Below, one piece after another: positions 37,909 to 56,531 of a stretch of DNA of 64,000 nt. The stretch comes from an uncultured Planctomycetaceae bacterium (GTDB lineage: Bacteria; Planctomycetota; Planctomycetia; Isosphaerales; Isosphaeraceae): the NCBI GenBank assembly GCA_963833985.1, contig CAWIAD010000002.1, forward strand, positions 1,216,001 to 1,280,000, read 5' to 3'. Position 1 is the stretch's first letter; each line of letters begins with the position of its first letter. Both the position numbers and the translations under genes were made by a program. Below the pieces are notes generated by a model that was not told where the DNA came from, did no database searches, and worked only from the letters and a program-made list of their open reading frames with translations.

Positions 37909-38015
37909 ACAGAGGCCCGTCCGCGCCGGCCCGGGGACTTTCCCAACCTCGGTGCAGGTCTCAACGTCAATACGGCTCGTCCTTCACGGGCGGCCCGCCG
38001 GAGGCTCACTCAGCC

Positions 38016-39449
38016 ATGGTCGACTGCGTCCTGGTCTACCCGAACCCGTCTCGCGATAGCCCCAATCGCAACCTGGCGCTGGGCATTCTCTTCGTCGGTG
38101 CGGCTCTCGAGGAGCAGGGCTTCTCCGTCGCCTACATCGACCTGCGCTTCGACACGAGGCAGGAACTCGCCGGCTTGCTGACTGGCGGTGTGCGCGTGCT
38201 CGGCGTCTCCGTCATGACCGGGAACCAGTGCAAGGAAGCCGCGGAGGTACTTCGCATGGCGAAGACCCTCGCGCCCACTGTCCGCACGGTCCTTGGCGGT
38301 GTGCACCCGTCGATGCTGCCACAGGAATGCCTGGATGAACCCGACGTCGACTTCGTCGTCACCGGCGAGGGCGAGCAGACCATGGTCGAGCTGGTCCAGG
38401 CCATCCTCGACGGCACTCACGATTTTGGCGGCATCACGGGGCTGGGGTGGAAAGATCACGGGGAGACGAAGCGGAACCCCGACCGTCCGTTCATGGACCT
38501 GGCAAGTGCGCCGTTCCCGATGACTCCGGCCAGCAGGCGCTTCTACGAGATTGCCGCCCGTACGGGTCACGTCAGTTACTTCACCACGCGCGGCTGCCCT
38601 TTCCGTTGCAGCTTCTGCTACAACCTGGCCTTCAACAAGCGGAAGTGGCGCTCGCTTCCGATGGAGCGACTCGAGGAGGATCTCCGGCGGGTCCGCCGCG
38701 AAGTTCCGTTCGACCACGTCTACTTCGTCGACGATTACGTCGGCCATCGCGTCGAGCGTCTCCGCGACCTGGCCAGCACCATGAACCGCATCCAGCTCAC
38801 CTGGCACTCCTCGATCCGCGTCAACGACATCAGCGCCGAGACGGTGAAGATCCTGGCCGACGGGAATTGCAGGCTGATGCTTCTGGGTGTCGAATCGGCC
38901 GCCGAGGACGTGCAGCAGGGAATCCTCGTGAAGGACTATCGCCAGGGCATCGACGACGTGCGCCGTTGCGTCACGAGCATCGCGCGGACGAATATCACGC
39001 CGCTCTACAGCTTCATGTACAATGTCCCCGGCGAGACGTCCGAGCAGCTCAAAGAGTCATGCGAGCTGGCCGAGTGGATCCATCGCACCGATCGACGGGC
39101 GCGGATCGGCTTCTACGCGTACACGCCCTACCCGGGAACGCCCCTCTATAATCAGGCCCTCCAGTCGGGCTTTCGGCCCCCCTCGCGGCTGGAAGGCTGG
39201 GGACAGATGAGCCTGAGCAACGACCTCAACCCGAAGCTGCGCGACCTCTACTACATCGCCGGACTTCGCTTCCGGGGCCGCAAGGGCGACCGCACGGATG
39301 AGAACTTCCCCGGGCTCCAGCGGCTGCGCATCCTGCCTTTCGAGGCCATTTCACGAATGCGCTGGCGAATGCGGAGTTTCGTCTACACGGACTACGAACG
39401 CCGGATGGTCACCAACATGATCGAGCACGCCACGCGCCGTGCGCGCTAG
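38016..39449 (+). CDS. Cobalamin-binding radical SAM enzyme (class B methyltransferase-like)
   Basis: VLGGVHPS, VTGEGE, TRGCPFRCSFC, YFVDD, GVES, TPYPGTPLY. Confidence 0.92.
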   Translation: MVDCVLVYPNPSRDSPNRNLALGILFVGAALEEQGFSVAYIDLRFDTRQELAGLLTGGVRVLGVSVMTGNQCKEAAEVLRMAKTLAPTVRTVLGGVHPSMLPQECLDEPDVDFVVTGEGEQTMVELVQAILDGTHDFGGITGLGWKDHGETKRNPDRPFMDLASAPFPMTPASRRFYEIAARTGHVSYFTTRGCPFRCSFCYNLAFNKRKWRSLPMERLEEDLRRVRREVPFDHVYFVDDYVGHRVERLRDLASTMNRIQLTWHSSIRVNDISAETVKILADGNCRLMLLGVESAAEDVQQGILVKDYRQGIDDVRRCVTSIARTNITPLYSFMYNVPGETSEQLKESCELAEWIHRTDRRARIGFYAYTPYPGTPLYNQALQSGFRPPSRLEGWGQMSLSNDLNPKLRDLYYIAGLRFRGRKGDRTDENFPGLQRLRILPFEAISRMRWRMRSFVYTDYERRMVTNMIEHATRRAR

Positions 39450-39469
39450 ATGAGAGGGTCGGCACGACG

Positions 39470-42085
39470 ATGATGGAGGACACAACGGAAATCTGCATCT
39501 GGGGGGCCGGCCTGGTGGGCTATTCGCTCGCGTGCGCCCTGGCGGAACGCGGGCGGAAGTGCATACTGGTCGATATCTCCCGGGATGTCGTCGAGCGCAT
39601 CAACGCCGGTGCTCCCCCCCGTTCACTGCATGGTGTGTACGGCTCTCAGCCCCTGGATGCCGGTGTCCGCGGTCGCTTGCGGGCGACGATGGAGCCGTCG
39701 CTGGCACTGTCGCCCGAGCACCCTGTGCACATCATCGCGGTGCCCACGGAGCGTGGGGGCCTGGTTTGCTCGGACCACCTGCGTGAGGTGGTCGAGAATG
39801 TCGCCCGTGCGGAATCCGCGGCGCGTCCGCTCTACTTCCTGATCGAGTCCACCGTCTCCCCCACCTGGATCGATGGCATCGTCCACGCGACGTTCCGAGC
39901 CGCCGGTTGGAGGCACGGCGAGGATTACCACGTTGGCTGTTCACCGCGGCGCGATGTCTTCGGCGATCCTGCTTATGCGATGCAGCAGATCGACAAGGTT
40001 TACGGTGCCGACAGCGAGCAGGGTGCGGAACTGATGCAGGCACTCTACACTCCGCTCTGCCGGGGACTGCATCGGGCGCCCGATGCTCGCCATGCATCGC
40101 TCACGAAGCTCGTGGAGAATCTCTACCGGCACCAGGCGATCCTGCTGGCGAATCGGCTCGCGGCCGCGCTCCCCGGCTTCGACGTCGCGGAGGTGCTCCG
40201 CCTGGCCGCGACGAAATGGAATATGCAACTCTACCATCCCTCCCTCTGGGTCGGCGGCTACTGCGTTCCGCTCGCGAAGGATTACCTGGCGTCCTCGGTG
40301 GAACCGCAATGGAGGGACGATCTCCTCCCGGTCGAGGATATATCAAGGATGGAAAAGTTGTTCCTGGATGCCCTTTTTGCCGGAGCGTCGGGCCGGCGGG
40401 TTGGTCTGCTCGGGCTTTCGTACGCGCCGGGTCTACGTATCGTGGTGAACGCTCCGGCGCTGCGGGTCGTGCGTTACCTGAAGCGTCGGGGCCTCGAGGT
40501 GGCTGTCCACGACCCCTATTTCAGCGAGACCGAGATCCTCGAGCTCGCAGCAGTGCCCAGGTTCGATTTCCCGAGCGAGCTGCGAGACTACGATGACGTT
40601 GTGCTGCTGACCGCGCACGTGGAGTATAGCCGGATCTCCGATCGCGAGCTGGCCGCTCATCTGCCGGCGCGGGCCCGGCTCATCGACAACTGCGGCATCT
40701 GGAGACGGCGCCGCTGGGCGGAGGGGATCCGCTACGTCGAGATTGGCGGGGCGGGCTTTCGCGGCACCGACATGCCGGATGGGCAGGCAATTCAAGCCTC
40801 GGAGATCGAGGCCTCCGACTGCCCCGTCGCGTGCTCACCCGCCAGGAACCGGGCGTACCTGGAGCGGCTCGAGCGGGAAGGTGAGCTGCCAGGGTTTTAT
40901 ACACACGTGGATCGCATCCTCCAGATCGACCGAGACTACCTGCACGCGCAATTCGACGGTGAGCGAATGAATATCCCGCAGCTCGGGGAACGGGTGCGGG
41001 CCCTACGAGGCAAGCCGATCGCCGACCACTCCGACGCCCAGATCGATACCATCTGTGCTCTTGCAGTCTATGGGATGGCGTGGGTGCGGCTCGAATACGT
41101 CGATATGCGAGTGACGATGGAGCGCGCCTGTCGCTACCTCGTGGATACGGCCGAAACTTACAATCGGAACCTCCTGGAGATTGGAGAGGAGCCAGCCCGA
41201 TGGCCGCCGGGATCTCCCTGGTGGAAGATCGCGTCGCAAATCCCGGAGCTACGCGAGCGGATCGACGGGCATTATTTCCGGCTCTCTCTCATCAACGGCG
41301 CGAACTGGTACCGGAGGGAGGTCTTCCTGAGGAAGCAAGAGCTCGAGCCGCAGCCAATGCCCCGGACTCTTGCCGGCGCATTCGCAGCGCATTCGCCGGT
41401 TCCCAGGCTGATCGACGCGAGCGATCCGCACGAATCGCTCCGTGCCCTCACGAGGGCGGTGCTCGAGCGAGATCAATCCCCCACAACTTTGCTGGTGACA
41501 TTGATGAAGGCGGCGACCGAGGACCCTTGCATCGACGCCCACCACACGACACTGCTGTGCCCGCGGGGCACGATGCTGGAACGTCCCTGGGAGATGTCGC
41601 CAGAGGACTTCCTCGCGTACGTCGTGTTCCGCCCGGGGTTCGAGCCGCCGGTCGGCCAGGGCGTGCACGACTTCCGCACGATCCAGAAGGCGATGCTGGC
41701 TCATCACGCGGCGAAAAAAACCAAGCTGGCAAGGCGTTACAAGGCGCGCTACGGCCCTGGCTCGGTGGCGCAGCTTGCCGACAATCTTGGTGATCTGGGG
41801 ATCTACTACAATGAGGACGCGCACCATAAGGGCCACCAGGTTGCCGGCGTCGCGTCCGCCATGCGTTATCTCATGCCCGTGCGGGTGCGGCGCGAGGAAA
41901 AGGAATTCCGGATCGAGGGCCTGACCGACTTCCGGGTCACACGCATGAGCCGGGCGGAACGAGATCGCTTCCGCCTGGAGGACTTCCCGCTGTTCCATGA
42001 CTACGGCGGCTGGGCGCGTACCATCCTGGAGACTGCGTATTCGATGGGCTTCGTCTTTCCCCGAATGCTCGAGAACTGGCGATGA
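39470..42085 (+). CDS. NDP-sugar (UDP-GlcNAc/ManNAc/Glc) 6-dehydrogenase fused to a ~430-aa domain of unknown function
   Basis: GAGLVG, AVPT, IESTV, KLVEN (catalytic Lys), GGYCVP (catalytic Cys), LGLSY, HDP, LTAH; unassigned C-terminal half with EDAHHKGH. Confidence 0.82.
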   Translation: MMEDTTEICIWGAGLVGYSLACALAERGRKCILVDISRDVVERINAGAPPRSLHGVYGSQPLDAGVRGRLRATMEPSLALSPEHPVHIIAVPTERGGLVCSDHLREVVENVARAESAARPLYFLIESTVSPTWIDGIVHATFRAAGWRHGEDYHVGCSPRRDVFGDPAYAMQQIDKVYGADSEQGAELMQALYTPLCRGLHRAPDARHASLTKLVENLYRHQAILLANRLAAALPGFDVAEVLRLAATKWNMQLYHPSLWVGGYCVPLAKDYLASSVEPQWRDDLLPVEDISRMEKLFLDALFAGASGRRVGLLGLSYAPGLRIVVNAPALRVVRYLKRRGLEVAVHDPYFSETEILELAAVPRFDFPSELRDYDDVVLLTAHVEYSRISDRELAAHLPARARLIDNCGIWRRRRWAEGIRYVEIGGAGFRGTDMPDGQAIQASEIEASDCPVACSPARNRAYLERLEREGELPGFYTHVDRILQIDRDYLHAQFDGERMNIPQLGERVRALRGKPIADHSDAQIDTICALAVYGMAWVRLEYVDMRVTMERACRYLVDTAETYNRNLLEIGEEPARWPPGSPWWKIASQIPELRERIDGHYFRLSLINGANWYRREVFLRKQELEPQPMPRTLAGAFAAHSPVPRLIDASDPHESLRALTRAVLERDQSPTTLLVTLMKAATEDPCIDAHHTTLLCPRGTMLERPWEMSPEDFLAYVVFRPGFEPPVGQGVHDFRTIQKAMLAHHAAKKTKLARRYKARYGPGSVAQLADNLGDLGIYYNEDAHHKGHQVAGVASAMRYLMPVRVRREEKEFRIEGLTDFRVTRMSRAERDRFRLEDFPLFHDYGGWARTILETAYSMGFVFPRMLENWR

Positions 42086-42714
42086 ACCGGACGATGCTTG
42101 CGCTCATGGCCCACCCGGACGATGCCGAGCTGTGCATGGGGGGGACAATCGCCCGCTACGCGCACGCCGGGTTCCGGGCCGAGATCGTGATCTCGTCGCT
42201 GCCGGACTTCCCGGACGTCCGTCGTGCCGAGGCTGCTCAGGGGGCTGCGGTCCTCGGCGCAGGTGTCCGCATCCTCGCTCCGCCCTCGAAACGCGAGACC
42301 TGGCAGGTCGAGGACTTTCCGGTGTACCGGCTGGTGGCGGCCTTCGACGCGATCCTGGAGGAGCTCCAGCCGTCCCTCGTATTCACGCACTGGCCCAAAG
42401 ACACGCACTTCGATCATGTTCGAGTGAGCCAGGCAGCCTTCTCGGCCACACGGAGGCACAGGGTCGACCTGTACCTGTGCGAGCAACCCAACCTCTACGC
42501 GGCCACCGTGGAGCCGATGAAGTTGAATACGTATGTGGACGTATCCCAGTTCATGGATAAGAGACTGGACAGCATCGCCTGCCACCGGTCGCAGACACAG
42601 GGGAAGACCTATTCGGAGCACGTCCGTGCCCGCACCCGGTTCCACGGGGAACGGACCGGCTGCCAGTATGCGGAGGCCTTCTGCTGCGCAATCCAGCGGC
42701 TGAGGATTGATTGA
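42082..42714 (+). CDS. PIG-L/LmbE family N-deacetylase
   Basis: AHPDDAE and DTHFDH zinc motifs, HRSQ, YAEAF; ATGA coupling to the upstream gene. Confidence 0.92.
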   Translation: MNRTMLALMAHPDDAELCMGGTIARYAHAGFRAEIVISSLPDFPDVRRAEAAQGAAVLGAGVRILAPPSKRETWQVEDFPVYRLVAAFDAILEELQPSLVFTHWPKDTHFDHVRVSQAAFSATRRHRVDLYLCEQPNLYAATVEPMKLNTYVDVSQFMDKRLDSIACHRSQTQGKTYSEHVRARTRFHGERTGCQYAEAFCCAIQRLRID

Positions 42715-42716
42715 GC

Positions 42717-43574
42717 ATGGGGCATTCCAGTCCTGTTGGGTTCTCGACAACGGTCATCGGGCGTTCGACCGACCTCAGCCGTCTGCTGGAGCTCGAACCC
42801 GACATCATCGAGCTGTGCGGCTATTCCGCCGCGCAGTGGCCCTCAGTGCGGGCGCAAATCGAGCGGTTGGGCATTCCCGTAGGGCTCCACTGTCCTTTGC
42901 CGTTCGAAGGATTCGTCCCCCACTTCGATATCACGGGACCAGACTCTGCGCGACAGGAAGAGGCTTTTGCGCTGGTCCGCCAGACACTTCGAGCTGCTTG
43001 CGAAGTGCAGGCCCGGTACGTCATTGTCCATTTCCCGAGCGTGCTCCGTGAGATTCTCGACGAGGATGACGCTCTCGAATCTCGTCGTGCTGCGGCGCTG
43101 TGCAGCGCACGGCGGATCGCGGAGCTCAGCCAGCAATACGGGGTGGCGATCCTGCTGGAGAACGTCGGCCCCAATCCTTATCTCTATCTCGGCGAGCACT
43201 TCACCTGGTTGTTCGGCCAGGTTCCCGAGCTGAGGATGTGCCTCGATTTCGGCCACTCCCATGTCCTGCCGGGAGCCGAGGACGTGTATCGATTTGCCGA
43301 GCAGGTCGCACCATTCGTCTCCGGGCTCCACGTCTACAATGCGACCCGGGCGGGCTATCGGGTCGGTTTCCACGAGGCACCGCTGGCTGAGCACGATCCC
43401 GACGAAGGCTGGATGGACCTGTCCAGGCTGCTCGCCGTGATGGCGAAGAGAGCCACGATTCCTTATTTCATTTTTGAGTACTCCGAAGATAGTGGACAGG
43501 ATGTGGAAGCCGTCCGGCGCGGCGTGCAACACTGGACCGCGACCTGGAGGAGTCTATGCCGCGAGGAGGGTTAA
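42717..43574 (+). CDS. Sugar phosphate isomerase/epimerase (xylose-isomerase-like TIM barrel)
   Basis: GLHCP, IVHFP, LLENV, CLDFGH, LHVYN, IFE metal-ligand pattern. Confidence 0.8.
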   Translation: MGHSSPVGFSTTVIGRSTDLSRLLELEPDIIELCGYSAAQWPSVRAQIERLGIPVGLHCPLPFEGFVPHFDITGPDSARQEEAFALVRQTLRAACEVQARYVIVHFPSVLREILDEDDALESRRAAALCSARRIAELSQQYGVAILLENVGPNPYLYLGEHFTWLFGQVPELRMCLDFGHSHVLPGAEDVYRFAEQVAPFVSGLHVYNATRAGYRVGFHEAPLAEHDPDEGWMDLSRLLAVMAKRATIPYFIFEYSEDSGQDVEAVRRGVQHWTATWRSLCREEG

Positions 43575-44707
43575 GAGGCTGGCTCCGTGGGCAACGGCTC
43601 CGTGCGCGGGGGGCGTCGCTCGGGGCGGGAACTTACGTCAGCCAGGGAGTGCGGATCAGCGCCCCGGACATCCGGATCGGGGCCGGCGGTTTCCTCGCCC
43701 CGGGCGTCGAGATCCAGGCGGATCGTGTCGTGATCGGCGACCGCTGTCACGTTGCGGAGGGGGTTTCACTTCGCGCAGAGCGCATCGAGATCGGCGAGAA
43801 TTGCATCCTGTTTCCGGGCGTTCGCATTCAGACGCTCGGCGAATTCCGCATGGGCCCGTACGGGAAGATCAGCCGTGGCGCGACGATCAAGGGGGGAAGC
43901 GTCCGGATCGGGTCCGAATTCTGGATGAACGCCGGCGCCGAGATTGGCGGCGGGGGATGGCGCAGTCGGACAGGTTGTTTCGAGGCGGGGGACCGCTGTC
44001 ACGTGGGCCGGTTGACTCACATCAATGTGACCGAGCCGGTCGTCTTCGGCGACGATACGGCGGTGGGCATGCACTGTATCCTGGCAACACATGCGCACTG
44101 GCAACCCGCAACGCAGGGCTATCCGCGGCTGCGCGGGGCCATCCGGCTGGGGTCAGACGTGGCGATCTATTCGGGAGTGATCATATCTCCGGGCGTCACC
44201 GTGGGTCACGGCGCGGTAATCGCGGCGGGCGCGGTCGTTCAGACGGACGTACCGGATCTGTCCCTGGCGGCGGGAGTGCCGGCACGAATCGTCCGTGAGC
44301 ACTTTCCCCGCGGTGGGGGAGCGCCTGTCGCCCTGGCACTGCTCTGCGAGTACATGGAAACGCGCTTCCCGGGTGTATCGTACCACTCGAAGGCCGGGCG
44401 TTTCATCGCCCAGCCCGCCACCGGAGCCCAGTGCATTCTGTATGACGACGATGAGAGTGCGATGGACCACGAGTCACGGCCCGGGTCGCTGATCGTCGTC
44501 ACGCTGAACCGGGCTGTTGCGGACGCGGCACAATCCGGAGCCGAGACCGTCTTCAACCTCGGTGATCGCGAGTTGACGGGCCGCTCCACGGAATTGAGCG
44601 AGTCGCTGCGTCAGTTCTTTTTCAGCGCGGGCCTGCGCTTCAAGTACCGAGGATACCAGCGCGGACCGCTGGACTACGCGCAACTGATCGAGTCCGGAAT
44701 CGAGTGA
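43556..44707 (+). CDS. Hexapeptide-repeat (left-handed beta-helix) acyltransferase
   Basis: Many [IV]G..[CV].[IV] repeats; ISPGVTVGHGAVIAAGAVV..DVP...AAGVPARIVR. Confidence 0.88.
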   Translation: MPRGGLRGWLRGQRLRARGASLGAGTYVSQGVRISAPDIRIGAGGFLAPGVEIQADRVVIGDRCHVAEGVSLRAERIEIGENCILFPGVRIQTLGEFRMGPYGKISRGATIKGGSVRIGSEFWMNAGAEIGGGGWRSRTGCFEAGDRCHVGRLTHINVTEPVVFGDDTAVGMHCILATHAHWQPATQGYPRLRGAIRLGSDVAIYSGVIISPGVTVGHGAVIAAGAVVQTDVPDLSLAAGVPARIVREHFPRGGGAPVALALLCEYMETRFPGVSYHSKAGRFIAQPATGAQCILYDDDESAMDHESRPGSLIVVTLNRAVADAAQSGAETVFNLGDRELTGRSTELSESLRQFFFSAGLRFKYRGYQRGPLDYAQLIESGIE

Positions 44708-44779
44708 CTGGAAGGAGCAGCATGGCATGCCCTGGATACGCCCACCGAGTTGCGGGGTGGGTCCGCCTGGCCGTACCCG

Positions 44780-47224
44780 TCACCAATCCCGGACCAGTCC
44801 TCCCACCTCACGCTCGAGGCGCCCCACGAGCTCCCGAACGGACTGGTTCACCTCCTCCATGGAGAGGGTTCGGTCGCTGGCCTGGTACAGCAGCCGATAG
44901 GTCATGCTCCGCTTGCCCGGAGGGATTGGCGCACCCCGATATTCCGTCACGAAATCGACCGACGCGATCCAGTCAGAGTGAGCCGCGCTGAGCAGGCGAT
45001 CCAGCGCCTCGTGCGTGACGGCCTCGTCAACCGTGATGGAGATGTCGATCGGGACGCCCGGGTGTCGATGGATGGGACGGAAGACCTCGGGCGTCGGGGT
45101 CAGTTGCTGGAGCACGTCGAGATTGAACTCCGCCAGCGCCAGGTGCGGGCCGCAGCCGAGCGCGTCGGCGATTCTGGGGTGGAGCGTCCCGCACACGCCG
45201 ACGGGCGCGCCTGCCGCATCAACGAACTCGGCCGAGCGTCCGGGATGGAACCACGGGGCAAGCTGTCGCTCGGGATGACGAGGCCGGATCTCCAGGTTAA
45301 GCCTGCGAAACAGTGCCTGGGTGTGCCCTTTCAGGATGGACATCGCCTCCCGGTGCCAGCCCGAGTCGCTTGCGGGTTCAAGTCCTCCGCCTCCGGACGG
45401 ATCGCCGCCTTTCGCATGCTTCCAGTAGACCAGTCCCAGGTGGAAGGGCTGATCCGGCAGACCCTTGGCGGGATGAAAGGTTCGGCCCACCTCGTAAAGC
45501 GAAAGCTCTCGCGTGTAAGGAAGACTGCGCTGAAGCAAGCGGAGCAGGCCAGGTACGAGGTAAGCCCTGAGATGGGTGTTCTCCGCGCTGATCGGGTTGC
45601 GGAGCGACACTCGCGCCCAGGTGCAAGGACCCAGTATCTTCAGAAACGGCTCGAAATCGAAGGAATAGGTCCGCGCCTCGGTGTATCGCAGGGCCAGAGA
45701 GAGCAGTGTGCGAACGCGCTTCTGGAAGACCAGGACAGGGTCGCGGTAGGCGTTGGGCAACTGGATCTGGGGTTGTACGGGTGGGATGTTGCCGTAGCCG
45801 TGGATTCGGCCGACCTCCTCCACGATGTCTTCCGGGATGGCGATGTCCTTCGTGGCCCGGAAGCTTGGTACCCGGATGCGCAACGTGTCGCCCTCGAGTT
45901 CGCGAATTTCGAACTCCAGACGACGCAGGTCGGAGACGATCGCCTCCGCGGGAATCGCAGTGCCCAGCCGCTCATTGATGAAGGAGACGGATACGTCGAT
46001 CTCGACTGATGGCGTTGGGCCCGACTGGAAGTCGGTAAGGGAAGAGGCGACGCGCGCGCCGGGCAACAAATCGATCAGCAACTGCGCACACCGTTGCGCT
46101 GCGAGCGGAGGAAGAGTCGGGTCCACTGCCCTTTCGAACCGGGCGCTGGCCTCGGTGCGCAGGCCGAGGCGAGACGCCGTCTTGCGTATCGAGGCCGGAT
46201 CGAACGTGGCCGCCTCGATGAGAATGCTGCTGGTATCAGCGCGCACTTCGCTGTTTTTCAGGCCGCTCACCCCAGCGAGCGCGACCGGCCCTTCGGCATC
46301 GCAGATCAGCAGATCGTCGCTGCCGATCTGGTACTCCTGGCCGTCGAGGCCGACCACCGTCTCGCCGGCGGGCTGTCCCGTTTGCACGACGATGCGGCGA
46401 CCGTGAATCTCGCGTGAATCGAAGGCGTGCAGCGGGTTGCCCAGATCGAGCATCACAAAATTCGTGACATCGACAAGCAGGTTGATCGGCCTGAGCCCGC
46501 AGCGTGACAGCAGCGTCTGCATCCACAGGGGCGAGGGCACCGGCCTGACCCCCTCGACACGCAACGCGACGTAGCGAGCACAGCGCTCGGGTGCCCGCAC
46601 GTCGACGGCCACGGCAGGCGTTGTGCCGAGAGACAGTTCCACGGGAGGGATACGGAAGGGTCGCCTCAACAAGGCTGCCACCTCGTGCGCCAGGCCGGCG
46701 TGGCCCCACAGGTCGGGCCGGTGGGTGATTGACTTGTTGTCGAGCTCGAAGATGGTGTCCACCAGCGGGAGAACCCGGTCCAGAGGCGTCCCCGGCGCCA
46801 GCTCATCGGGCAGCACGCAGATGCCTGTCTGGTTGTCCGTCAAGGTGAGCTCGGCCGGCGAGCAGAGCATTCCATCGCTCGATGTGCCACGAATGCTCGC
46901 GCTCTTGACCGTGGCGCCGCCCAGACGCGTCCCGGGTGGAGCGAGCGCACTCTTCATGCCCTGCCGCACGTTCGGTGCGCCGCAGACGACCTGGCGCGGG
47001 GATCCTGATCCGTCGGACACAATGCAGATCGAAAGGTGGTCGGAGTCGGGGTGGGGCTGCACGCTGATCACTTCGGCGACGACGACGCCCTCAAGGCCGG
47101 CCCCGAATACGTGAAACCCTTCCAGTTCGGCCACGGAGCTTGTGAATCGGCGTGCCAGGTCCTCCCGATCAACACCGTTCAAATCGACATAACGTCTCAA
47201 CCAGTGAAATGAAAACTTCATCAT
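44780..47224 (-). CDS. pheT: Phenylalanine--tRNA ligase beta subunit
   Basis: MKFSFHWLRRYV, QVVCGAPNV, GMLCS, DVTNFVMLDLGNPLHAFD, RTEASARFE, EDIVEEVGRIHGY; C-terminal FDX-ACB domain (DRTLS). Confidence 0.95.
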   Translation of the reverse strand: MMKFSFHWLRRYVDLNGVDREDLARRFTSSVAELEGFHVFGAGLEGVVVAEVISVQPHPDSDHLSICIVSDGSGSPRQVVCGAPNVRQGMKSALAPPGTRLGGATVKSASIRGTSSDGMLCSPAELTLTDNQTGICVLPDELAPGTPLDRVLPLVDTIFELDNKSITHRPDLWGHAGLAHEVAALLRRPFRIPPVELSLGTTPAVAVDVRAPERCARYVALRVEGVRPVPSPLWMQTLLSRCGLRPINLLVDVTNFVMLDLGNPLHAFDSREIHGRRIVVQTGQPAGETVVGLDGQEYQIGSDDLLICDAEGPVALAGVSGLKNSEVRADTSSILIEAATFDPASIRKTASRLGLRTEASARFERAVDPTLPPLAAQRCAQLLIDLLPGARVASSLTDFQSGPTPSVEIDVSVSFINERLGTAIPAEAIVSDLRRLEFEIRELEGDTLRIRVPSFRATKDIAIPEDIVEEVGRIHGYGNIPPVQPQIQLPNAYRDPVLVFQKRVRTLLSLALRYTEARTYSFDFEPFLKILGPCTWARVSLRNPISAENTHLRAYLVPGLLRLLQRSLPYTRELSLYEVGRTFHPAKGLPDQPFHLGLVYWKHAKGGDPSGGGGLEPASDSGWHREAMSILKGHTQALFRRLNLEIRPRHPERQLAPWFHPGRSAEFVDAAGAPVGVCGTLHPRIADALGCGPHLALAEFNLDVLQQLTPTPEVFRPIHRHPGVPIDISITVDEAVTHEALDRLLSAAHSDWIASVDFVTEYRGAPIPPGKRSMTYRLLYQASDRTLSMEEVNQSVRELVGRLEREVGGLVRDW

Positions 47225-47332
47225 GTCCTCGGATTAGTGGACCTGCTGGCAGGCACATGCTGCGCCATCCGGAATGCGTGGGGCTTCCTCCCGGAGCCGC
47301 ATCGACGACCCGGGGGCGCGCTGGCTCCCCGC

Positions 47333-48387
47333 TCACTCCAGGCCCAGGCCCAAGAATTGCTTGAGGAAGCGGATGTCCCCGTCGAGAAACAAGCGGATAT
47401 CCGGGATCTTGTAGCGCATCATTGCGAGACGGGACAGCCCGAGCCCGAACGCCCAACCCTGCCATTGCTCGGGGTCGAGGCCGCCGGCACGGATGACGTT
47501 GGGGTGGACCAGTCCGCACGGGAGCAATTCCACCCAGCCCGACATCTTGCAGACCGAGCATCCCGCCTGGCCGCACACCAGGCAGCCAATATCCAGCTCG
47601 AAGCCGGGCTCGACGAAGGGGAAGAAGCCTGGGCGAAGCCGGATGGCCACCCTGGCGGCGAACACTTCCGAGAGCAGGCTGGTCATCGAAGCAATCAGGT
47701 TCGCCACCGTGGCCCGTCGATCGATGAAGAGGCCTTCCACCTGGAAGAAGGTGTGCTCGTGCGAGGCGTCAACGGCCTCGTGCCGGAACACCCGCCCCGG
47801 GAAGATGGCTCGGAACGGCGGAGTAAAAGTGCGCATGGCCCGGACCTGGCCGGCGCTCGTATGGGTCCGGAGCAGGTTGCCATCCTCCAGCCAGAACGTA
47901 TCTTGCATGTCTCGGGCGGGGTGATCGGGGGGAATGTTCAAAGCATCGAAATTGTAATATTCCGATTCGGCCTCCGGATAATCGAGTACGTAGAACCCCA
48001 TCGACTGGAAGATCTCCTGGAGGCGCCACTCCATGAGGCTGATCGGATGGAATGTTCCAGTATTGACCGGGGTGCCAGGGAGCGTGGCGTCGAAGTCGTC
48101 CGCGACGAGCTCGGCCTGGAGCCGAGCTTCCGCAAGCTCGGCCTTGCGCCGGCCGGCCAGGCCTTCGACTTCCCGAACCGCGTTGTTCAAGGCGCTGCCA
48201 AAGACCTGCGCTGCTCGGGGGAGAGGGTTACGATCTTCTGGAACAGGGCACGCAGCAGTCCTTTCTTGCCGGTGTACCGGCGCTCGGCGGCCTCGAGCGC
48301 CGTCAGGTCCGCCGCGCGCGTGATGGCATCTCGGGCCTCTTCCTCGAGACTCTTCAACACTTCGTCCGCAGGCTGATTTTCGCTCAT
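47333..48387 (-). CDS. pheS: Phenylalanine--tRNA ligase alpha subunit (1-nt frameshift near 48205)
   Basis: N-terminal coiled coil MSENQ...YTGKKG in one frame; NFDALNIPPDHPARDMQDTF, LRTHTS, PGRVFR, FFPFVEP, WAFGLG in the next. Confidence 0.93.
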
Positions 48388-48616
48388 ATCTGGATGGCTC
48401 ACGGGAGCTCTCGGCGAAGCACTCGCGCAGGGCGCAAATGGACCGCTCGAGCATGGCCGGTTCCGCACAGGGCTCGAACGCTTTCCCGATGGTCTGACGT
48501 AACTCGTGACTGGATCGGCGAATTCGCACGCGTCGAACCGGTCGGAACGCAATCAGTCTAACCGATGCCCGGGAGGAGAAGTCAACGGCAGACTAACCCG
48601 AAGGCCGGTCCGGAGA

Positions 48617-48970
48617 TCAGGCGGCAGTCCCGGTCAGAGGGAGCCCGGTAAGGCTCCAGTGAGGAAGCCCACCCTGAAGGTAATTGATGCGAGTGACCCC
48701 ATGCCGCTGGAGCTCGTGGCAGGCGGCGAACTCCTCCTCCTCATTGTCGCCGACGACCAGGTAGTGCAGCCCCCGAGGGAGCGTGGGAAGCATTGCCGGC
48801 AATGACTCCAGGGGAACATTCCGCGCACCCTCGATGTGCCCCAGGGCGTACGCGGCTGGATGTCGGATGTCCAGAAGTTCGAGAGTGGGAGTACCCCGGA
48901 GGGAGTGATAGGCCTCGGTCGGTGTCAGGTCTCTCCATTCCCGGTTAAGTCCTCGGGGGCCCGGCGGCAA
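48617..48970 (-). CDS. Rhodanese-like domain (probably the C-terminal domain of the upstream decarboxylase)
   Basis: LLDIR..AAYALGHIEGARNVP and YLQGGLPHW; frame stays open upstream to ~49130. Confidence 0.75.
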   Translation of the reverse strand: MPPGPRGLNREWRDLTPTEAYHSLRGTPTLELLDIRHPAAYALGHIEGARNVPLESLPAMLPTLPRGLHYLVVGDNEEEEFAACHELQRHGVTRINYLQGGLPHWSLTGLPLTGTAA

Positions 48971-49007
48971 CGCTTCCTCCAGGCTGTCTGTCCTTGCCGG
49001 ATTGCCC

Positions 49008-50366
49008 TCAACCCTCGCTGGCGCCTGGCACGGGAATGCGAGCGTGATCCGCTCCTCCTCCCGCGTCTCGACGGCGCGAGGTGGAAACGAGCTGACGTCC
49101 GTCGTACGAAAGACCCCGCCGTCGAGGCTCGACGAGAATTTCTCTGGGCGGAGTCTGGTTGATGAAGTAGATCGGGCTACCTGTCAAACCGTAGGCACCG
49201 GAGCAGCAGACCGCCAGGAGATCCCCGACTTCCAGGGAAGGCAGCATGGCCTTGCGGGCAAAGGTATCGTGAGGAGTGCAAAGTGGTCCCGCCAGGCAAT
49301 ACGGTCGCTCTGCTCCGGCAGGCTTTGCGCCGGAGACCCTGATGATCTCATAAGGCTCGCCGAGAAGTCCGAGATGCCGGCATGCGCCGAGATTGTGATG
49401 CATACCGCCGTCACAGATCGCAATCTCGTCTCCTCCAGATGATTTGAGGTAGAGCACTCGCGTCAGATAACAACCGGCCTCGCCAGCAAGATAGCGGCCG
49501 GTCTCCAGCACGAACCGCGTCTCCTCGAAGCCAGCGCTTCCACGCAGTTCCACGAGCATGGGGCGGAGGCGCCGGGCGAGCGCTGGAAGGTCAACGGGCT
49601 CGGCCGCCACGGTATAGGGGATACCCAGGCCAGCACCGAGCACGAGCAGCTCAGGCCGGAGCCTGAACCTGGAAACGGCGGGAACGCATGCCCGCAGGAA
49701 CCGTCCCATGTTCTCGGCAATCTGGCCGGCATCACAAAACTGTCCACCTTGATACGTGTGAAAACCACGTAAACAAAGGCGGGGAAGGCGAGCAATCTGT
49801 TCCAGGGCGTCGTGGAAGCAGCTCTCGGCAATCCCGAACTTGTCGGGGATTCGGAGTGCCTGCTCGCTCGCAGGGGGCGCTGGCCTGGCGAGGGCCAGGC
49901 GAACCAGCACGGACTGCGGACTCTCGCCGTGCCCCGCCGGGACGTGGTGATGCAATCGTTCGGCCTCCTCCACGGATTCCAGCACAACGTAGCCGATCCG
50001 CTGACTGGCCGCGGCCCGCAGTTCCTTGTCGGTCTTGCCGGGACCTGTGAAGCTGAGTTGCTCGGCGGACCAGCCGGCCGCCGTGGCGAGAGAGATCTCT
50101 CCTGCGGACGACACATCCAGCAGCTCGGCGTGCCCACGGAGCCTGCTCAGGAGCGCGGGGTTGGGATTACTCTTGACGGCGTAGCTGATGTCCAGAATGT
50201 CGTCGAACGCGCGGCGCAGCATGCGAATGCGGTCGTGGATCTGATCCATGAAGTAGACGTAGCAGGGCGTCTCGTACCGCTCGGCGATTGCGCCCAGCAG
50301 CGGGTGCAAGAGGGCCGCGGCATCCGTGCCCGCAAGCTGGGGTAAGTTGATCCGCTTCATCTGCAT
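49008..50366 (-). CDS. Fold-type III PLP-dependent decarboxylase (diaminopimelate decarboxylase-like)
   Basis: TPCYVY, SYAVKSNP (PLP Lys), DVSSAGE, FTGPGK, KFGI, ETGRYL, AGPLCTPHD, GAYGLT. Confidence 0.9.
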   Translation of the reverse strand: MQMKRINLPQLAGTDAAALLHPLLGAIAERYETPCYVYFMDQIHDRIRMLRRAFDDILDISYAVKSNPNPALLSRLRGHAELLDVSSAGEISLATAAGWSAEQLSFTGPGKTDKELRAAASQRIGYVVLESVEEAERLHHHVPAGHGESPQSVLVRLALARPAPPASEQALRIPDKFGIAESCFHDALEQIARLPRLCLRGFHTYQGGQFCDAGQIAENMGRFLRACVPAVSRFRLRPELLVLGAGLGIPYTVAAEPVDLPALARRLRPMLVELRGSAGFEETRFVLETGRYLAGEAGCYLTRVLYLKSSGGDEIAICDGGMHHNLGACRHLGLLGEPYEIIRVSGAKPAGAERPYCLAGPLCTPHDTFARKAMLPSLEVGDLLAVCCSGAYGLTGSPIYFINQTPPREILVEPRRRGLSYDGRQLVSTSRRRDAGGGADHARIPVPGASEG

Positions 50367-50463
50367 TCCGTCAAAGGGGGACCTGCGTCATGAACTGGAA
50401 GCGGCTCGCCGCGCGCGTTCGACGGGGGGGTCTCTCGGACGCTTGAGACACGGAAGCTCATGT

Positions 50464-51321
50464 CTATGTCGGGAAGATCGGTCGGAAATGCCTGCGCAGC
50501 CAGTCGTTCGCCTGCAAGTCAATGGCCAGAGTGATGCGATCTGTCGTGCCAAAGTTCCACATATTATGATAATATATTGTATTGAAATAATAGAGCGCAC
50601 CTGGCGGAAGCTGATAGATCTTGATGGCATCCTGGTTGGCCGCTACGAACATCTGGTACCACGATTCCATCTGGGCTCGCCCCACGCCTTCCCCGGCCCA
50701 ATCCTTCGTGGTGCAGAACCGACGATCCGGGACAGTGAACTCCTCGAGCTGCGTTGCCGAGCTGACCATGAGGAAAGCCTGGTCATTGGTGACGATCGGA
50801 ATCTGAAATCGCTTGATCTCGGGGCTGAGGTCGATGTCCGCGTGCAACGTGTAGCTGGTACCTGGCGCCCGTCGCAGCAGGCGAAACGAGACGATCTCAC
50901 ACGAGAAAGCCTCGAACAGCTCCTCGAGGTACGGGCAGCCGTCAAGGCGTTCCGCAGGCGGTTCGGGAGATCCGTGACCCTCAGGGAGGACCCAGTTGTT
51001 GCCGTGCTCCCTCCCCGAGGCCGAAAGCCGACGAAACGTGAGCGGCAGGCTGTGGCCGTACCGGCCCCGGCTCCAGTCCCAGCCCGCAATCGCGTGCCGC
51101 ATGTCGGCGACCAGGCGGTCCAGGTCAAGTTTCAAGAACGTGTAAAGGTCCCCATGAGCCGCGCGGCCAGCGATCGGGCGCACGATTGCCGGGTGCAGAG
51201 TCTCGACCAAGGATACTGGTGGAACGCTTGGTTTCCCCAAAGGACCTGCTCCTCGGCTCCTTGACCGGATGATTCCTCTGATTCGATCATCATCGAAGTC
51301 GACCACTCTGTTGCAGATCAT
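50464..51321 (-). CDS. Aspartyl/asparaginyl beta-hydroxylase-family Fe(II)/2OG oxygenase
   Basis: RLL...PG....LHAD, RFQIPIVTN, YYFNT..YHN..N.G..DRITLAID; ATGA overlap with the upstream gene. Confidence 0.78.
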   Translation of the reverse strand: MICNRVVDFDDDRIRGIIRSRSRGAGPLGKPSVPPVSLVETLHPAIVRPIAGRAAHGDLYTFLKLDLDRLVADMRHAIAGWDWSRGRYGHSLPLTFRRLSASGREHGNNWVLPEGHGSPEPPAERLDGCPYLEELFEAFSCEIVSFRLLRRAPGTSYTLHADIDLSPEIKRFQIPIVTNDQAFLMVSSATQLEEFTVPDRRFCTTKDWAGEGVGRAQMESWYQMFVAANQDAIKIYQLPPGALYYFNTIYYHNMWNFGTTDRITLAIDLQANDWLRRHFRPIFPT

Positions 51322-52406
51322 CCCGCTTCTCGGTGCTTCTCGGCGGCATCCGCGCGAACTTCCGCGTACACTGGAAAATCATCACCGATGCTCACACCAA
51401 CGACCATGGCGGTCACCGGACCGAGCGTCACACCACGGCCGGGCAACACCGGCTCTTCACGCACGCAGGCTCCGTCGCCCCGAGACAGCTGCACCAGGTT
51501 GAGGAAGATATTGGTCGCAAACGAGCCGGAGGGGACCTCCCGCATCGACGGATACGCTCTGCCTTGTTCATCGAGGACCCGGGGCAGAGATCTTCGCCTC
51601 CTCAGGGTCAGGCCGACCGTGTTCGAGCCTCCCGAGAGAAACGCCTGGGCCAGCTTGCCCTGGTAATCACCGAGGTGGCCGATATTGCTCAGATAGACGT
51701 ATTCATAACGCGACGATGCAGCCAGCTCGCGGATGTCAGCCAGACCGACGCGCAGCACCGTGTGACAAAGTCGTTCTTTAAGAAGATCATAGGTGTTTTC
51801 CGTAAGGAAAGCATCGATCCGCTGCTGTGCGGCCGGGTGATAGCACAGCCTGTGACGGACGAGCCTGGAGTTGTCGGCGTCCCGTGCGTTGACAGTCGCC
51901 AGCATGCGGTAATGCGGTTGCCGGAGCAAATCAAAATACGTCCGAGCCGGAGGTGAAAGCCAGGCGCGTAGGGACTCATATCCCGCTTCATCGAAGAAGG
52001 GCCCGCAATATGTGTTGTCGTTGATTTCGGGGAGCTTGAAGAGTCGCAAATACTCGATTAGCGACAATTGCTCAACGGCTAGGAATTTCAGCTCCGTCAA
52101 GAACAGCGCAAAGGGGGAAAGATCCATCACGCGAATCGAGGCGCAGCCCTTCGAGACGAAAAGGAGCGGCAGGTCCCCGCAGCCCGCAACCGTCAAGACG
52201 TTCCGGCCCGCGAGATCGACCGTCCTGGCCAGTACACCGAATGGGTCAGATGAGTTAACATAGAGAACAGTGCTCACGTCCTCAATCGATGTGAGCGTTT
52301 GTCCTGGCAGGCCGTCGGCGAGGCTGTGCATCAGGCAAGAGACGCGCTCCGCGGTGAGACCGGAGGAAGCGTACTCGGATTCCAGTTGCTCCGCTACAAA
52401 GCTCAT
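51318..52406 (-). CDS. DUF3419/BtaA-like SAM-dependent (3-amino-3-carboxypropyl) transferase
   Basis: VLTVAGCGD, VMDLSP...LTELKFLAV..L...EYL.LF and YVYLSNI match the DUF3419/BtaA pattern. Confidence 0.62.
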   Translation of the reverse strand: MSFVAEQLESEYASSGLTAERVSCLMHSLADGLPGQTLTSIEDVSTVLYVNSSDPFGVLARTVDLAGRNVLTVAGCGDLPLLFVSKGCASIRVMDLSPFALFLTELKFLAVEQLSLIEYLRLFKLPEINDNTYCGPFFDEAGYESLRAWLSPPARTYFDLLRQPHYRMLATVNARDADNSRLVRHRLCYHPAAQQRIDAFLTENTYDLLKERLCHTVLRVGLADIRELAASSRYEYVYLSNIGHLGDYQGKLAQAFLSGGSNTVGLTLRRRRSLPRVLDEQGRAYPSMREVPSGSFATNIFLNLVQLSRGDGACVREEPVLPGRGVTLGPVTAMVVGVSIGDDFPVYAEVRADAAEKHREAG

Positions 52407-53155
52407 GATGATTCCCCGTGCTCGCGGACCGGCAATCAACTGCGCCCTCGTGGTACGCCTCACTGGGGGTTACGCCAGAGAGTCTCTGCCAGGACTGAAA
52501 CGGCGGCCGACCGTGCCGTCCCGGGTCCCTGGCAAGCTCCACTGGGACCCGCTGCCCGTGCGGCCGGTCTTGAAGCAAGCGCTGCTCAGGCACCCTTCAG
52601 GATCAGGATCCTGCCACCTGGGACCGCTCGGCGAGAAGCAGAGCGGGATGACGGGGCAAGTCCTCATCATAGCGAGGTCGAATGGGCCGGTCAAAGCCGA
52701 GTTCTCGTAGCCCCTTCATGCTGCTCGATAGCCCAATCCGCTGGCGAAGGCCAGTGGAAACCGCATTCAGCATGATATAATATGGAAGTGCGACAATATA
52801 AGCAAACACAAAACTCAGTGCTGTCGCGAGTGATCACTGTCAGCTCCTGGATTGGCATCGGGCGGCTTCAATGGGGCCCGGATTCGCCTCTGTGTCATCC
52901 TCCCCGTGGTCATGGCGGCAGGGGAGGCCCGGCGAGTTGGCGCCCGAGCCCCATCCTGTAACGGAAACGGCTTGCTCAAGGACTGATCCGGTGCATAATG
53001 AAGAGCCGGAAGTCCAATCGTCGATCCGGCGCGTTCGGTCGGTATTTGCCCCTGGCTCAGGTCCTGTCACGCGCTGGACCCAGGCTGCGGTGGCAGGGGC
53101 GATACGGGCGATCCTTTCCACGAGCTTTTTGCCAACCCACGAGGATGCGGGACCT

Positions 53156-53533
53156 ATGGACCGACTGGCGGCGGATCAGGTGCACCTCATTCTGCAAGAC
53201 CTGCCTGAGTTCTCACCGCAAGGGCGCTCGGTGCTGCGACTCTACCGGTCGCCGGAGAGCGAAATCTTGCTCGTCTGCTGGGAGCCCGGGCAGGAGAGCT
53301 CCACACACGATCATGGATCGTCGGAGTCTATTGTCCATGTGCTCCAAGGCAGCCTGATTGCCAATCCGGGTGGCCGGCTGATCCGCGAGCGAGAAATGGT
53401 GATCACGCCGCGCGGTGCGATCCACCAGCTTGTGAACAGCTCTTCGTCTCGAGCCGTGAGCCTGCATGTGTACAGTCCCCGTTTGCACACCCCGATCTCG
53501 CCTCCCTTCAAGGACCTGACTCAGGTCCCCTGA
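53156..53533 (+). CDS. Cysteine dioxygenase-like cupin
   Basis: CWEPGQESSTHDHG, IHQLVN and AVSLHVYSP, the His triad and SLHVY motif of the CDO type I family. Confidence 0.8.
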   Translation: MDRLAADQVHLILQDLPEFSPQGRSVLRLYRSPESEILLVCWEPGQESSTHDHGSSESIVHVLQGSLIANPGGRLIREREMVITPRGAIHQLVNSSSSRAVSLHVYSPRLHTPISPPFKDLTQVP

Positions 53534-53658: not shown

Positions 53659-55703
53659 TCAACACCGAGCCACCCGGGAGGCGCCGAGGACGCTTTCCGT
53701 GCTGTCGCCGGGCCCCAGGTCAGGACGCACGCGCACATAGCCGCGCACGTTACGGATGCGGTCGAACCAATGGTTGAACTGGCCGGCATCACAGGTCGCG
53801 GGATTCAGCGTGACCAGGTCTTCCTTCGGTAAGGACTCAGGATTTCGATCGAAAAGGTACTCTCCGGCGCGCAGAGTGCGAAATGGGACAGGTCGTGCAG
53901 GTAATTCGTGGCACTCCAGGCGGACACGTCGTGCCCGAGCTCCACGCGGTTGGGCCGACCATGATCGGCAGCGCCGTAGTATGCCAGTGTGAAATCTCTG
54001 AGTGACTCGAGCTCCACGGCCGTCGTCCTCGGACGACCCGGATCCGCGTCGGGAAGGCACTGGACCAGAGTCTCGAGCACCAGTTCGACGAGCGCCGGGA
54101 CGAGATCGTTTCGGATGAGATGGTGCGCGAAGAGGAAGCCAACGCGCGTGAGCCGATGCTCTCGCGAGAATCTCTGCCTGACCGCGCAGCAGCTCGTCAT
54201 GGGAACAGTAGAGCTCGGACTCGAGTTGATCTTGCAGGTAGGCAAGCGATGCCGACACGGCAGGAGATTGGGCGGCGCGCTTGATGACCCGGAAGAACAG
54301 CTCTGATTCGATGAGGCCTCGGGAACGAGCGAAGCGTGAAATGGGTTCACCCAGTCCGCAGTGGTGCCAGAACGCCGTCAGTGAATGAAAATGGCGGAGT
54401 GTGAAGTAGTCGGCCTGTGACAGGGTGCTGGTGGCGATGACGATCTCCTCGGATTCAATGACGATCTCTTTGCCGTCGAGCTCGAGGATGCAGCCGTCCG
54501 ACAGTCGAAACCGCGTCTCCAGCCCGAATTGCTCTCGCGCCCGGGGGGACGCGAGCTCGGTACCGGGTATGAGCACGAGATTGAACATATCAACCTTATC
54601 AACTCCTTGCTCGTAGAGGCTGCCCAGGCTGCGACGGAAGGAGCCGAGCGAGTCGCCGGGGAGCCCGACGATGAGGTCCGACGCGGTAAAAAGGTTCTTC
54701 GAGCGGGCGTAGTCCGCGAGGTCCCGATAGTCGGACAGCCGGATGTTCTGACGCTTGATGTTCTCCAGCACTTCCGCGTTCAGCGACTGGACCGCGAGCA
54801 GGAAGCGGACTTTCTTGCCGAGGATTTCCGCAATTTCCACAAGCCGTCGGCTCGAGTTCTTTGCGTACCAGAGGTGGATCTGAGCCGGATAGCCATGTGT
54901 ATTCCAGAGCTTCTCGAGGTGCGTGGCGATGGCGCGGTCGCGGCCAAGGATACCGAAGTTGGCGTCCGCGATGGTGAGATGGTCATTCCCGCGGCGCGCC
55001 GGGCAATATAGCTCAATTCCTCGCACACCCGATCGAAGCTGAATTGATGGATCTTCGCGACAGTCGCCGACCCCCAATTGCAGAACGTGCAAGAGAAAGG
55101 GCAGCCGCGGTTGGTCTCGACAATGGGCGTGAAACCCCGGTCGAGGAAACGATCGAGCAACCCGCTCAGGTACGGCGACGGCACCTGATCGAGATCCTTC
55201 AGGCGTTCCGGGGCACCGCCATGGCAGAGCTGGCCGTCGCGCAGGTAGCCCAGGCCAGCGCCTGGCAACGCATCGAGACTGCCGCCGAGGACGGCCTCGA
55301 TGATGGCGGCGAACGTCCGCTCGCCCTCGCCGATGACATAGTAATCCAGCAGGGGACGGTGTTTCAGGAACGCCCACGCGGCGGCGCTTTCAGCGTCATC
55401 GAAATGAGGTCCCCCCTGGATGGTGATCGTGGCCGAATTCGACTCCTTGGCGCGACGGAGGCATTCGTAAGAGAGCGCCGTGTTCCAGACATAGTTGCTG
55501 GAAGCAACGATGTCGTAGCGGGTCGCCGCCAACGCCGCCAGAATCCGGTCCACCTCGCGCTCGATGTCGATGCGGACCTCCTGGCCAAACCGGCTAAGGA
55601 CGTACGATGCCAGCAGGCCGGCGCCCAGGGGCATGTACCAGTACGGTGTATGCCTCCCGTAGACGGGGTCGATCAGCAGGATATGCAGTGGTCTGCTGGC
55701 CAT
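53659..55703 (-). CDS. Cobalamin-binding radical SAM enzyme 2 (frameshifts near 54990, ~54190 and ~53870)
   Basis: MPLGAGLLASY, SNYVWN, GGP, GEGE, ETNRGCPFSCTFCNWG, then IADANFG, QSL, DLIVGLPGD, LIPGTEL in the next frame. Confidence 0.85.
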
Positions 55704-55799: not shown

Positions 55800-56531
55800 T
55801 CATTCCAGACCGATCCGGCAATTGCCAAGGCAAACCTCCGTGACCCTGCCGTCGGTGCCGCAGTCCGTCCGCGCGTGCAGGAATCGGTGGTTCGAAAACG
55901 CAATCAATTCCCCCGCGCGGAGAGTGGCGCGCACGTGGAGATCGGTCCAGATCGGGCAGAGGCGGATGAGCTCGTCGAACAGCTCTCCTTCACGCTGAGT
56001 GAGCTCGAGGTGGCTGGCCTTGTCCGCGGCACGGCGGTCGAACACCCGGGTCACGCCCCGAGGATGATCGCGGGGCACCAAGGGTACGAGCGGCCTTCCA
56101 CCCTCCGCGAGGTTCAGGATCCGAGGCTCGTGGAGCATGTGAAGAATGTCGTTGCGCCCGAGCGACGTGAGCCGTTCCATCACGTCGTCGATGTGGACCA
56201 GGAGATTCGCACCGCCCGTCGGGTCGGGGTGCACACAGCGGATGATCGTATACATCGGAGGCACAAGATAACGCGTCATGTCAGTATGGAATGCCAGGAA
56301 ACCGTGTCGCTGGGAGGTGTATTGACCGGAATCCTCGTCGATGCGGCAGACCCAGACGCCCTCCTTCCAGAATGGATGATCCGTCCACGCCTTGAACCAG
56401 GGCATCAGCGCGGCGAGCAGCTCGAGCAGCTCAGCCGGTGCGTCCGGCAGCTTCTTGATCAAGACCGCCTGGGAATGTAACGGATCATGCGTGATCGGGC
56501 AGGAGTCGAGTTCGTCCCACGTGTCCACCAC
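55800..56531 (-). CDS. TauD/TfdA-family Fe(II)/2OG oxygenase
   Basis: LAFHTD, GGANLL, L.AGELIAFSNHRFLHAR. Confidence 0.82.
   Translation of the reverse strand: MVDTWDELDSCPITHDPLHSQAVLIKKLPDAPAELLELLAALMPWFKAWTDHPFWKEGVWVCRIDEDSGQYTSQRHGFLAFHTDMTRYLVPPMYTIIRCVHPDPTGGANLLVHIDDVMERLTSLGRNDILHMLHEPRILNLAEGGRPLVPLVPRDHPRGVTRVFDRRAADKASHLELTQREGELFDELIRLCPIWTDLHVRATLRAGELIAFSNHRFLHARTDCGTDGRVTEVCLGNCRIGLE

Follow-up and report, generated by a model that had tools for sequence, protein, structure and literature searches.

Resistant aminoacyl-tRNA synthetases (aaRSs) are encoded in or near the gene clusters for several natural inhibitors of these enzymes. Passages in two sources (PMC9437257, PMC5388404) describe this arrangement for IleRS and mupirocin, SerRS2 and albomycin, and TrpRS1 and indolmycin, and passages elsewhere do so for the LeuRS AgnB2 and agrocin 84 (PMC8323819) and for ThrRS and vibriomycin (PMC13515044). 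In the cases covered by one of these passages, the producer's resistant copy diverges from its housekeeping copy (PMC9437257). Here, we describe a phenylalanyl-tRNA synthetase (PheRS) gene pair, pheS and pheT (pheST), that lies among biosynthetic genes in a 64,000-nucleotide stretch of DNA (the window) from an uncultured Planctomycetaceae bacterium (assembly GCA_963833985.1, contig CAWIAD010000002.1). The pair is like the known resistant aaRS genes in that it is divergent, full-length and foreign, sits in a biosynthetic cluster, and has apparently been kept with that cluster in other organisms. Unlike them, it encodes a two-subunit would-be target, and the housekeeping copy, which coexists with the resistant copy in the described cases, has decayed. 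The cluster also departs from known resistant-aaRS clusters in its mix of sugar genes, radical S-adenosylmethionine (SAM) enzymes and genes like those for RiPPs (peptides made by the ribosome and modified after translation), with no recognisable warhead or exporter; by analogy, pheST would be a candidate resistance determinant. The locus today lacks the coexisting housekeeping copy of a resistant-aaRS locus, yet appears to resemble such loci in position and origin.

A second parallel comes from Spirochaeta, Borrelia and Treponema, where, according to passages of one study, an archaeal-type PheRS replaced the native enzyme (PMC3191353). As in the spirochaetes, both subunits were swapped jointly for a foreign pair and the native lineage was lost. 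Unlike in the spirochaetes, native fragments are still readable, indicating a recent event, and the vehicle is visible as a biosynthetic island. A PheRS paralogue near polyketide synthase genes in Azospirillum sp. B510 is given as an unverified prediction in Table 2 of PMC5388404; likened by description, it too is a PheRS copy beside biosynthetic genes, but the island described here has no polyketide synthase. The pathway of microcin C offers a further likeness, with a SAM-dependent enzyme adjoining a pyridoxal phosphate (PLP) decarboxylase in a pathway for an aaRS inhibitor. Aminopropylation of microcin C uses MccD and MccE, and BtaA is not homologous to MccD, as stated in passages of PMC10491745. 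A link from the island to MccD/MccE was not supported; the DUF3419 protein had no match among solved structures. The island also differs from the microcin C system in having no ThiF/MccB enzyme.

PheRS is a pursued antibacterial target. In the passages of one review considered here, ochratoxin A alone is named as a natural inhibitor of PheRS (PMC7916415), and the table rows covered in a review of duplicated aaRSs list no example for PheRS (PMC9437257). A cluster that brings a PheRS of its own thus points concretely towards a new class of inhibitor. No description of this cluster was found in the part of the literature searched. Replacement of the native PheRS is well supported, while the proposal that the cluster makes a PheRS inhibitor is a testable lead whose chances fall somewhat below even. 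Whatever the product, an essential two-subunit enzyme has been caught in the course of being replaced, with the donor lineage, the vehicle and the decaying native genes all visible.

Replacement of the native PheRS

The genome contains one full-length pheS and one full-length pheT; tblastn and two family searches found no second intact pheST in the assembly, which is 96.3% complete. The initial annotation had proposed the pair as a candidate second copy, for self-resistance. For the present-day genome the term second copy is wrong, as the pair is the only full-length one, and the intact housekeeping copy that accompanies a self-resistance aaRS is lacking. Both subunits belong to bacterial PheRS (alpha2 beta2), with scores above curated cut-offs and complete domains. 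PheT scored 597 bits against TIGR00472 (cut-off 403) with all five Pfam domains found, and the PheS core scored 268 bits against TIGR00468 (cut-off 237), with the FPF loop of the synthetic site and its motifs present; the pheS frame used assumes that a frameshift is an assembly error.

The initial annotation had also suspected, from a PheT variant (DNKSITHRPDLWGH, which is indeed present in the translated protein), that the pair comes from a different lineage. In a 110-row tree, the window PheS grouped with four Myxococcota rows (SH-aLRT 98), far from 16 rows of the host family, and a clade of the window PheS with the host family was rejected by the approximately unbiased (AU) test (p = 3e-52, 29 rows); the PheS tree excludes one aberrant row, L031 (29% identity). 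The pair has thus diverged from the host's inherited orthologue, as a self-resistance aaRS would. The initial annotation would have been refuted by a pair that was the only pheST and grouped with vertically inherited orthologues. The first of these holds, but the grouping does not. In the host family, PheS was matched in 112 of 120 genomes (E<=1e-20), with 35-49% identity for long matches and 54% for the best fragment; across the phylum, PheT was matched in 90 of 400 genomes (E<=1e-110), with a best identity of 45%. Native PheT of the family is ~672 aa long and aligns with the profile from position ~158 onwards only; the window PheT is full length. These ~672-aa proteins (L058, L062, L066, L070 and other family loci) are without the N-terminal OB (B2) region, and most genomes that encode them have a separate small OB-fold gene, which is also present at G000:C1:3360607. 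Three planctomycete-class genomes (L033/L054, both from G031; L103; L109) carry a sister branch of foreign-type PheRS without the cluster genes, likely as a result of independent replacement. A genome of the same class has a PheS 87% identical to a Thermogutta sequence, which makes a planctomycete host likely.

Evidence for the loss of a native pair came from the region around rplT, which is on a different contig from the island pheST, in agreement with the earlier observation that the pair has no infC-rpmI-rplT context. The gene order in genus relatives is rplT, pheS, a small open reading frame (ORF), an amino-acid permease and pheT, and the same neighbours are kept in this genome. Between rplT and the small ORF there are only native-type pheS fragments, namely C1:1299844-1299675 (69-74% identity to genus PheS) and a short N-terminal trace. 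After the permease there is a native pheT remnant of ~34 codons (C1:1297629-1297528; 47-61% identity to family PheT), followed by a DDE transposase. Residues invariant over 16 family members were changed at 12 of 41 positions in the pheS fragments, versus 1 of 50 in rplT. These native-type fragments indicate that two pairs once coexisted and that the native one was lost. A search for a second pheST next to rplT, proposed with the initial annotation, thus gave signs of past coexistence but no intact copy. Of five relatives compared, G002 is the closest (87-92% flank DNA identity); it keeps native-type pheS and pheT and has no match to the island, so the replacement was recent. With a foreign pair present and the native pair lost at the syntenic site, as horizontal replacement entails, the sequences demonstrate that a cluster-borne PheRS displaced the native PheRS, whose essential job it would now perform. 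The genome's single tRNA-Phe(GAA) gene (G000:C1:1302425-1302498) is directly upstream of rpmI-rplT, at the native pheST decay locus.

The pair is interior to an acquired island: biosynthetic genes extend for ~17 kb to one side of it and for 9 kb to the other. The island encodes RiPP-like and sugar modules along with numerous SAM-, PLP- and 2-oxoglutarate (2OG)-dependent enzymes, placing pheST within a biosynthetic cluster, as is the case for self-resistance aaRSs. DNA matches to positions 33,000-52,900 were found in 50 of 120 family genomes, the longest being ~380 bases (two candidates scored per genome). Mean GC content at third codon positions (GC3) is 0.75 for 23 island ORFs versus 0.86 for 8 flanking ORFs (p 6e-5). 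The comparison excludes four ORFs, of which two are at the right border. The other two are far-left genes with a GC3 of 0.77 and show that low GC3 also occurs outside the island. Large genes for von Willebrand factor type A (VWA)-domain and IcmF-related proteins to the left of the island also have a GC3 of ~0.77, and perhaps represent a second acquired region. A YbaK-type tRNA-editing gene at the right border, which has a paralogue (81%) at G000:C2:3585970, is probably outside the island, since relatives have matches to it.

Probable association of pheST with the cluster in other organisms

The best two PheT matches among 5.8 billion proteins were P0002 (75% identity) and P0003 (59%), the next identity being 52%, and these two form one clade with the window PheT with 100% support. 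A JGI contig 52,693 bases long carries P0002, and one of this length carries P0248 (69% identity), a member of the best-match cluster for the island's decarboxylase-rhodanese. For P0003 the contig, also from JGI, has 14,534 bases, as has that of P0255, the best match for the island's sugar-dehydrogenase fusion (65% over 870 aa). Shared location in each case is deduced from identical contig sizes rather than from contig sequence; the chance of equal size is ~2e-6 for P0002/P0248 and ~2e-5 for P0003/P0255. It is therefore likely that pheST travels with the cluster, and that the link holds in two other organisms. No homologous cluster with readable sequence was found in phylum genomes, plasmids, viral contigs or a metagenome scan. 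Across the 80 nearest loci, some of them short, rplT was found in only 18; its absence beside the window pheST is thus usual for this lineage.

Proposed self-resistance and alternative origins of the pair

A mechanism can be proposed in which an island carrying a pheST of another lineage, missing from the relatives searched, arrived in the host, and in which the two copies then coexisted until the native one lost function through substitutions, deletions and a transposase after the pheT stub. These two events are hardly in doubt. Very probably, judging from the equal contig sizes, pheST was already a member of the cluster before its arrival. The native enzyme may then have been lost since the product inhibits or mis-feeds it, whereas the cluster copy tolerates the product; this step is tentative, and slightly harder to accept than to reject. 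Because PheRS is essential, this part of the island could then no longer be lost.

The foreign pheST may accordingly be proposed to have begun as the self-resistance copy of a cluster whose product targets PheRS, an origin that comes close to an even chance without reaching it. This origin is favoured because it explains the kept link with the cluster, the position of the pair at the end of the run of tailoring genes, and which of the two copies died. A broader version, in which a previously undescribed family of clusters (a radical SAM peptide module, an amino-sugar module with a GAF-like domain, and SAM/PLP/2OG tailoring enzymes) makes a natural PheRS inhibitor of bacterial origin, the resistant pheST drove out the host enzyme, and the producer is thereby tied genetically to its antibiotic island, is a possibility to be held with more caution. 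Genome mining may rank clusters by gene duplication, a criterion that appears in a passage of PMC13515044. The locus exposes a blind spot of such mining: with the native copy gone, a cluster copy resembles an ordinary housekeeping gene.

Several results weigh against self-resistance. The scan of island ORFs found no transporter or exporter, no recognisable Phe-analogue pathway or warhead, and no ThiF adenylyltransferase, the only MoeB/MoeZ matches falling on the rhodanese domain. Cluster genes were found near pheST in 0 of 80 genome loci, two weak rhodanese matches aside, and in 0 of 23 metagenome loci, a scan that missed P0002 and P0003. The fusion's more distant relatives, a further 36 entries, had no contig size in common with 119 PheT matches. 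Size matching can also give false positives for short contigs: two low-ranked matches from different sources shared a size of 7,485 (0.51 expected), and 3,656 would be another chance match if the list retained P0122, an almost identical copy of the gene in the window. G031, a genome of the same class, has the same broad PheRS lineage among housekeeping genes and no cluster, showing that displacement needs no inhibitor. In the five nearest genomes checked, all of the same broad lineage, pheS is single-copy (5/5).

The PheRS itself gave no independent sign of specialisation in its active-site and editing residues. The variant DNKSITHRPDLWGH is present letter for letter in 39 of the 120 best PheT matches (window protein included) and as a close variant in 120 of 120, and was rejected as a resistance mark because the motif is lineage-wide. 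The PheS motifs FPFVEPG and GWAFGLGLSR are shared by housekeeping members of the lineage, and the PheT editing residues R244, N254, H265, G318, E334, T354 and A356 (E. coli numbering; list from a passage of PMC8599791) are all conserved. Clade-specific changes in PheT numbered 7 versus 4.9 expected (p 0.23, control over 59 other clades), and their share in B3/4 was likewise unremarkable (p 0.29); an apparent excess at first look, 7 versus 0-2 in six hand-picked trios, was removed by the 59-clade control. Two weak post-hoc leads are that B3/4 holds 9 of 13 window PheT departures, including T292G and M320S, which fall in 99-100% columns, and that the window protein and P0002 alone gave p 0.013, uncorrected.

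The ordinary pockets of PheS and PheT, the sole housekeeping copies of the nearest relatives, and the occurrence of the same PheRS lineage without the cluster in G031 and the two other planctomycete loci named above are all as expected if the cluster had merely sat beside a donor's free-standing housekeeping pheST and moved with it en bloc. The pair would then be unrelated to the product, would have displaced the native genes neutrally, and would now anchor the island. The pheST of this lineage appears to be a movable unit, as rplT was seen in 0 of the 4 nearest Myxococcota loci, and whole-PheRS replacement by transfer is documented in passages on spirochaetes (PMC3191353). However, the link seems to have been kept across 59-75% PheT identity and involves genes of both flanking operons, and pheST is inside the island rather than at its edge. 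This neutral origin is a serious contender, but on balance doubtful. The evidence for co-occurrence would serve equally well if the cluster PheRS made Phe-tRNA, or charged a modified Phe, for a tRNA-dependent step on the precursor peptide or amino sugar, leaving the native enzyme redundant. Normal pockets suit a normal product, a sugar amine would become available through the deacetylase, no family could be assigned to three of the island's proteins, and aaRS-like enzymes such as SbzA and AlbC are active in biosynthesis, according to passages of PMC9437257. Such a supply role is nevertheless unlikely. Pfam and NCBIfam scans of the island found no cyclodipeptide synthase, LanB/PEARL, Fem or DUF2156 domain, a ~420-aa domain of the island resembles, in its predicted structure, GAF folds (Z ~10) and no listed transferase, and the host already makes Phe-tRNA.

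While 96.3% completeness, 3.9% contamination and frameshifts, including one in pheS, might suggest a chimeric island, or a native-type pheST in the unassembled 4% of the genome, the native locus was assembled through, is syntenic, and owes its decay to substitutions, a kind of change that does not arise from single-base indel errors. Moreover, the island is flanked on both sides by genus-like DNA inside a 6.6-Mb contig, and near-identical island proteins are present in Logan contigs. An artefact is thus very improbable. Self-resistance is ranked ahead of neutral co-transfer, followed by the supply of Phe-tRNA and lastly by an artefact of assembly.

Anatomy of the locus and other island proteins

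The minus strand carries, in order, the genes for the DUF3419 protein, an Asp/Asn beta-hydroxylase-like (AspH-like) enzyme and a decarboxylase-rhodanese fusion, then pheS and pheT (Table 1). The gene map thus confirms the initial annotation that pheST is downstream of and co-directional with these three genes, closing the run of tailoring genes, and that it converges on the sugar module: 72 bases separate the end of pheT from the stop of the gene for the hexapeptide acyltransferase, the last plus-strand gene of that module. No terminator-like site was found between the rhodanese stop and pheS, and no unusual fold 5' of pheS (z -0.14). There are no tRNA genes in the 64-kb window and no Rfam matches in the island.

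Table 1. Coordinates of the acquired island, its genes and nearby features in the window.
Feature	Position	Strand	Remarks
Acquired island, ~31 kb	27331-58050		Genus-like DNA ends left and resumes right (five relatives); lower GC3
pheT, full-length PheRS beta	47224-44780	-	814 aa; OB, B3/4, B5, CLM and FDX-ACB domains
pheS, PheRS alpha	ATG 48387 to 47333	-	~351 aa; one frameshift near 48200 (likely assembly error)
PLP decarboxylase (type III)-rhodanese fusion	50366-48617	-	Frameshifted near 49130
AspH-like 2OG-Fe(II) enzyme	51321-50464	-	PF05118, E 2e-5
DUF3419 protein, SAM-dependent	52463-51318	-	PF11899 barely above cut-off
Cupin, cysteine-dioxygenase-like	52871-53533	+	PF05995
B12-dependent radical SAM enzyme, KedN5-like	53659-55703	-	Spread over two frames
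TauD/TfdA dioxygenase	55800-56531	-	PF02668
Sugar module	39470-44707	+	Nucleoside diphosphate (NDP)-sugar dehydrogenase fusion, PIG-L deacetylase, TIM-barrel protein, hexapeptide acyltransferase
Domain of ~420 aa	40832-42085	+	Fused to NDP-sugar dehydrogenase
RiPP-like module	33138-39449	+	Candidate precursor, two radical SAM/SPASM, weak DMATS-like prenyltransferase, B12 radical SAM
108-aa protein	33138-33464	+	Candidate RiPP precursor
Class III aminotransferase, AdoMet (SAM) decarboxylase, 623-aa protein (- strand), PhyH dioxygenase	27733-32755		
623-aa protein	29459-31330	-	CxxC...CxxC pair near C-terminus
YbaK-type tRNA-editing gene	57807-58547	-	At right island border
IS630 transposase	18919-20064	+	Within mannosidase gene cluster
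VWA-domain and IcmF-related genes	6910-15005	+	Large genes

The genome assembly consists of 2 contigs. The pheS gene is broken by a frameshift at a T run, and the decarboxylase-rhodanese homologues P0121 and P0248 are unbroken. As a control, the assembly was compared with 119 ORFs that came from 20 stretches of a complete relative; 95 had matches and 58 passed orthologue filters, of which 9 were frameshifted in this assembly (0.095 per kb). The three breaks in ~25 kb of island genes match this rate, so the frameshifts in pheS and the decarboxylase-rhodanese gene are likely to be assembly errors, to judge from these comparisons.

The 108-aa protein has a leader that is helical and a Cys-rich tail with Trp as its last residue, is encoded directly 5' of the two radical SAM/SPASM enzymes and the weak DMATS-like prenyltransferase, and had no family match above any cut-off; its position and sequence suggest a RiPP precursor. 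The ~420-aa domain is of no known family, has conserved His/Glu/Asp residues, and has stand-alone homologues, one of them in Streptomyces sp. NPDC059786. Its structural model is confident (pLDDT 84.5) and includes a putative GAF-like part (Z ~10, 7-10% identity in the top rows). The domain was found in 0 of 400 genomes of its own phylum and, in a search run without a positive control, in 0 of 401 genomes of G137's phylum; it had no match in plasmids or viral contigs, no usable Atlas match and no Foldseek match at E<=0.001. The 623-aa protein had neither a family nor a structure match, and has a His...Cys pair that we take to be reminiscent of caspase/CHAT-type peptidases.

The DUF3419 protein may catalyse a BtaA-like aminocarboxypropyl transfer; its Atlas matches to DUF3419 clusters scored 0.95, and its recognition score was slightly below the tool threshold. 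The first radical SAM/SPASM enzyme of the island has a 48% paralogue, with low GC3 and no obvious cluster around it, at G000:C1:964222-965577. Outside the island, the IS630 transposase gene interrupts a cluster of mannosidase genes that apart from this shows synteny with three genus relatives.

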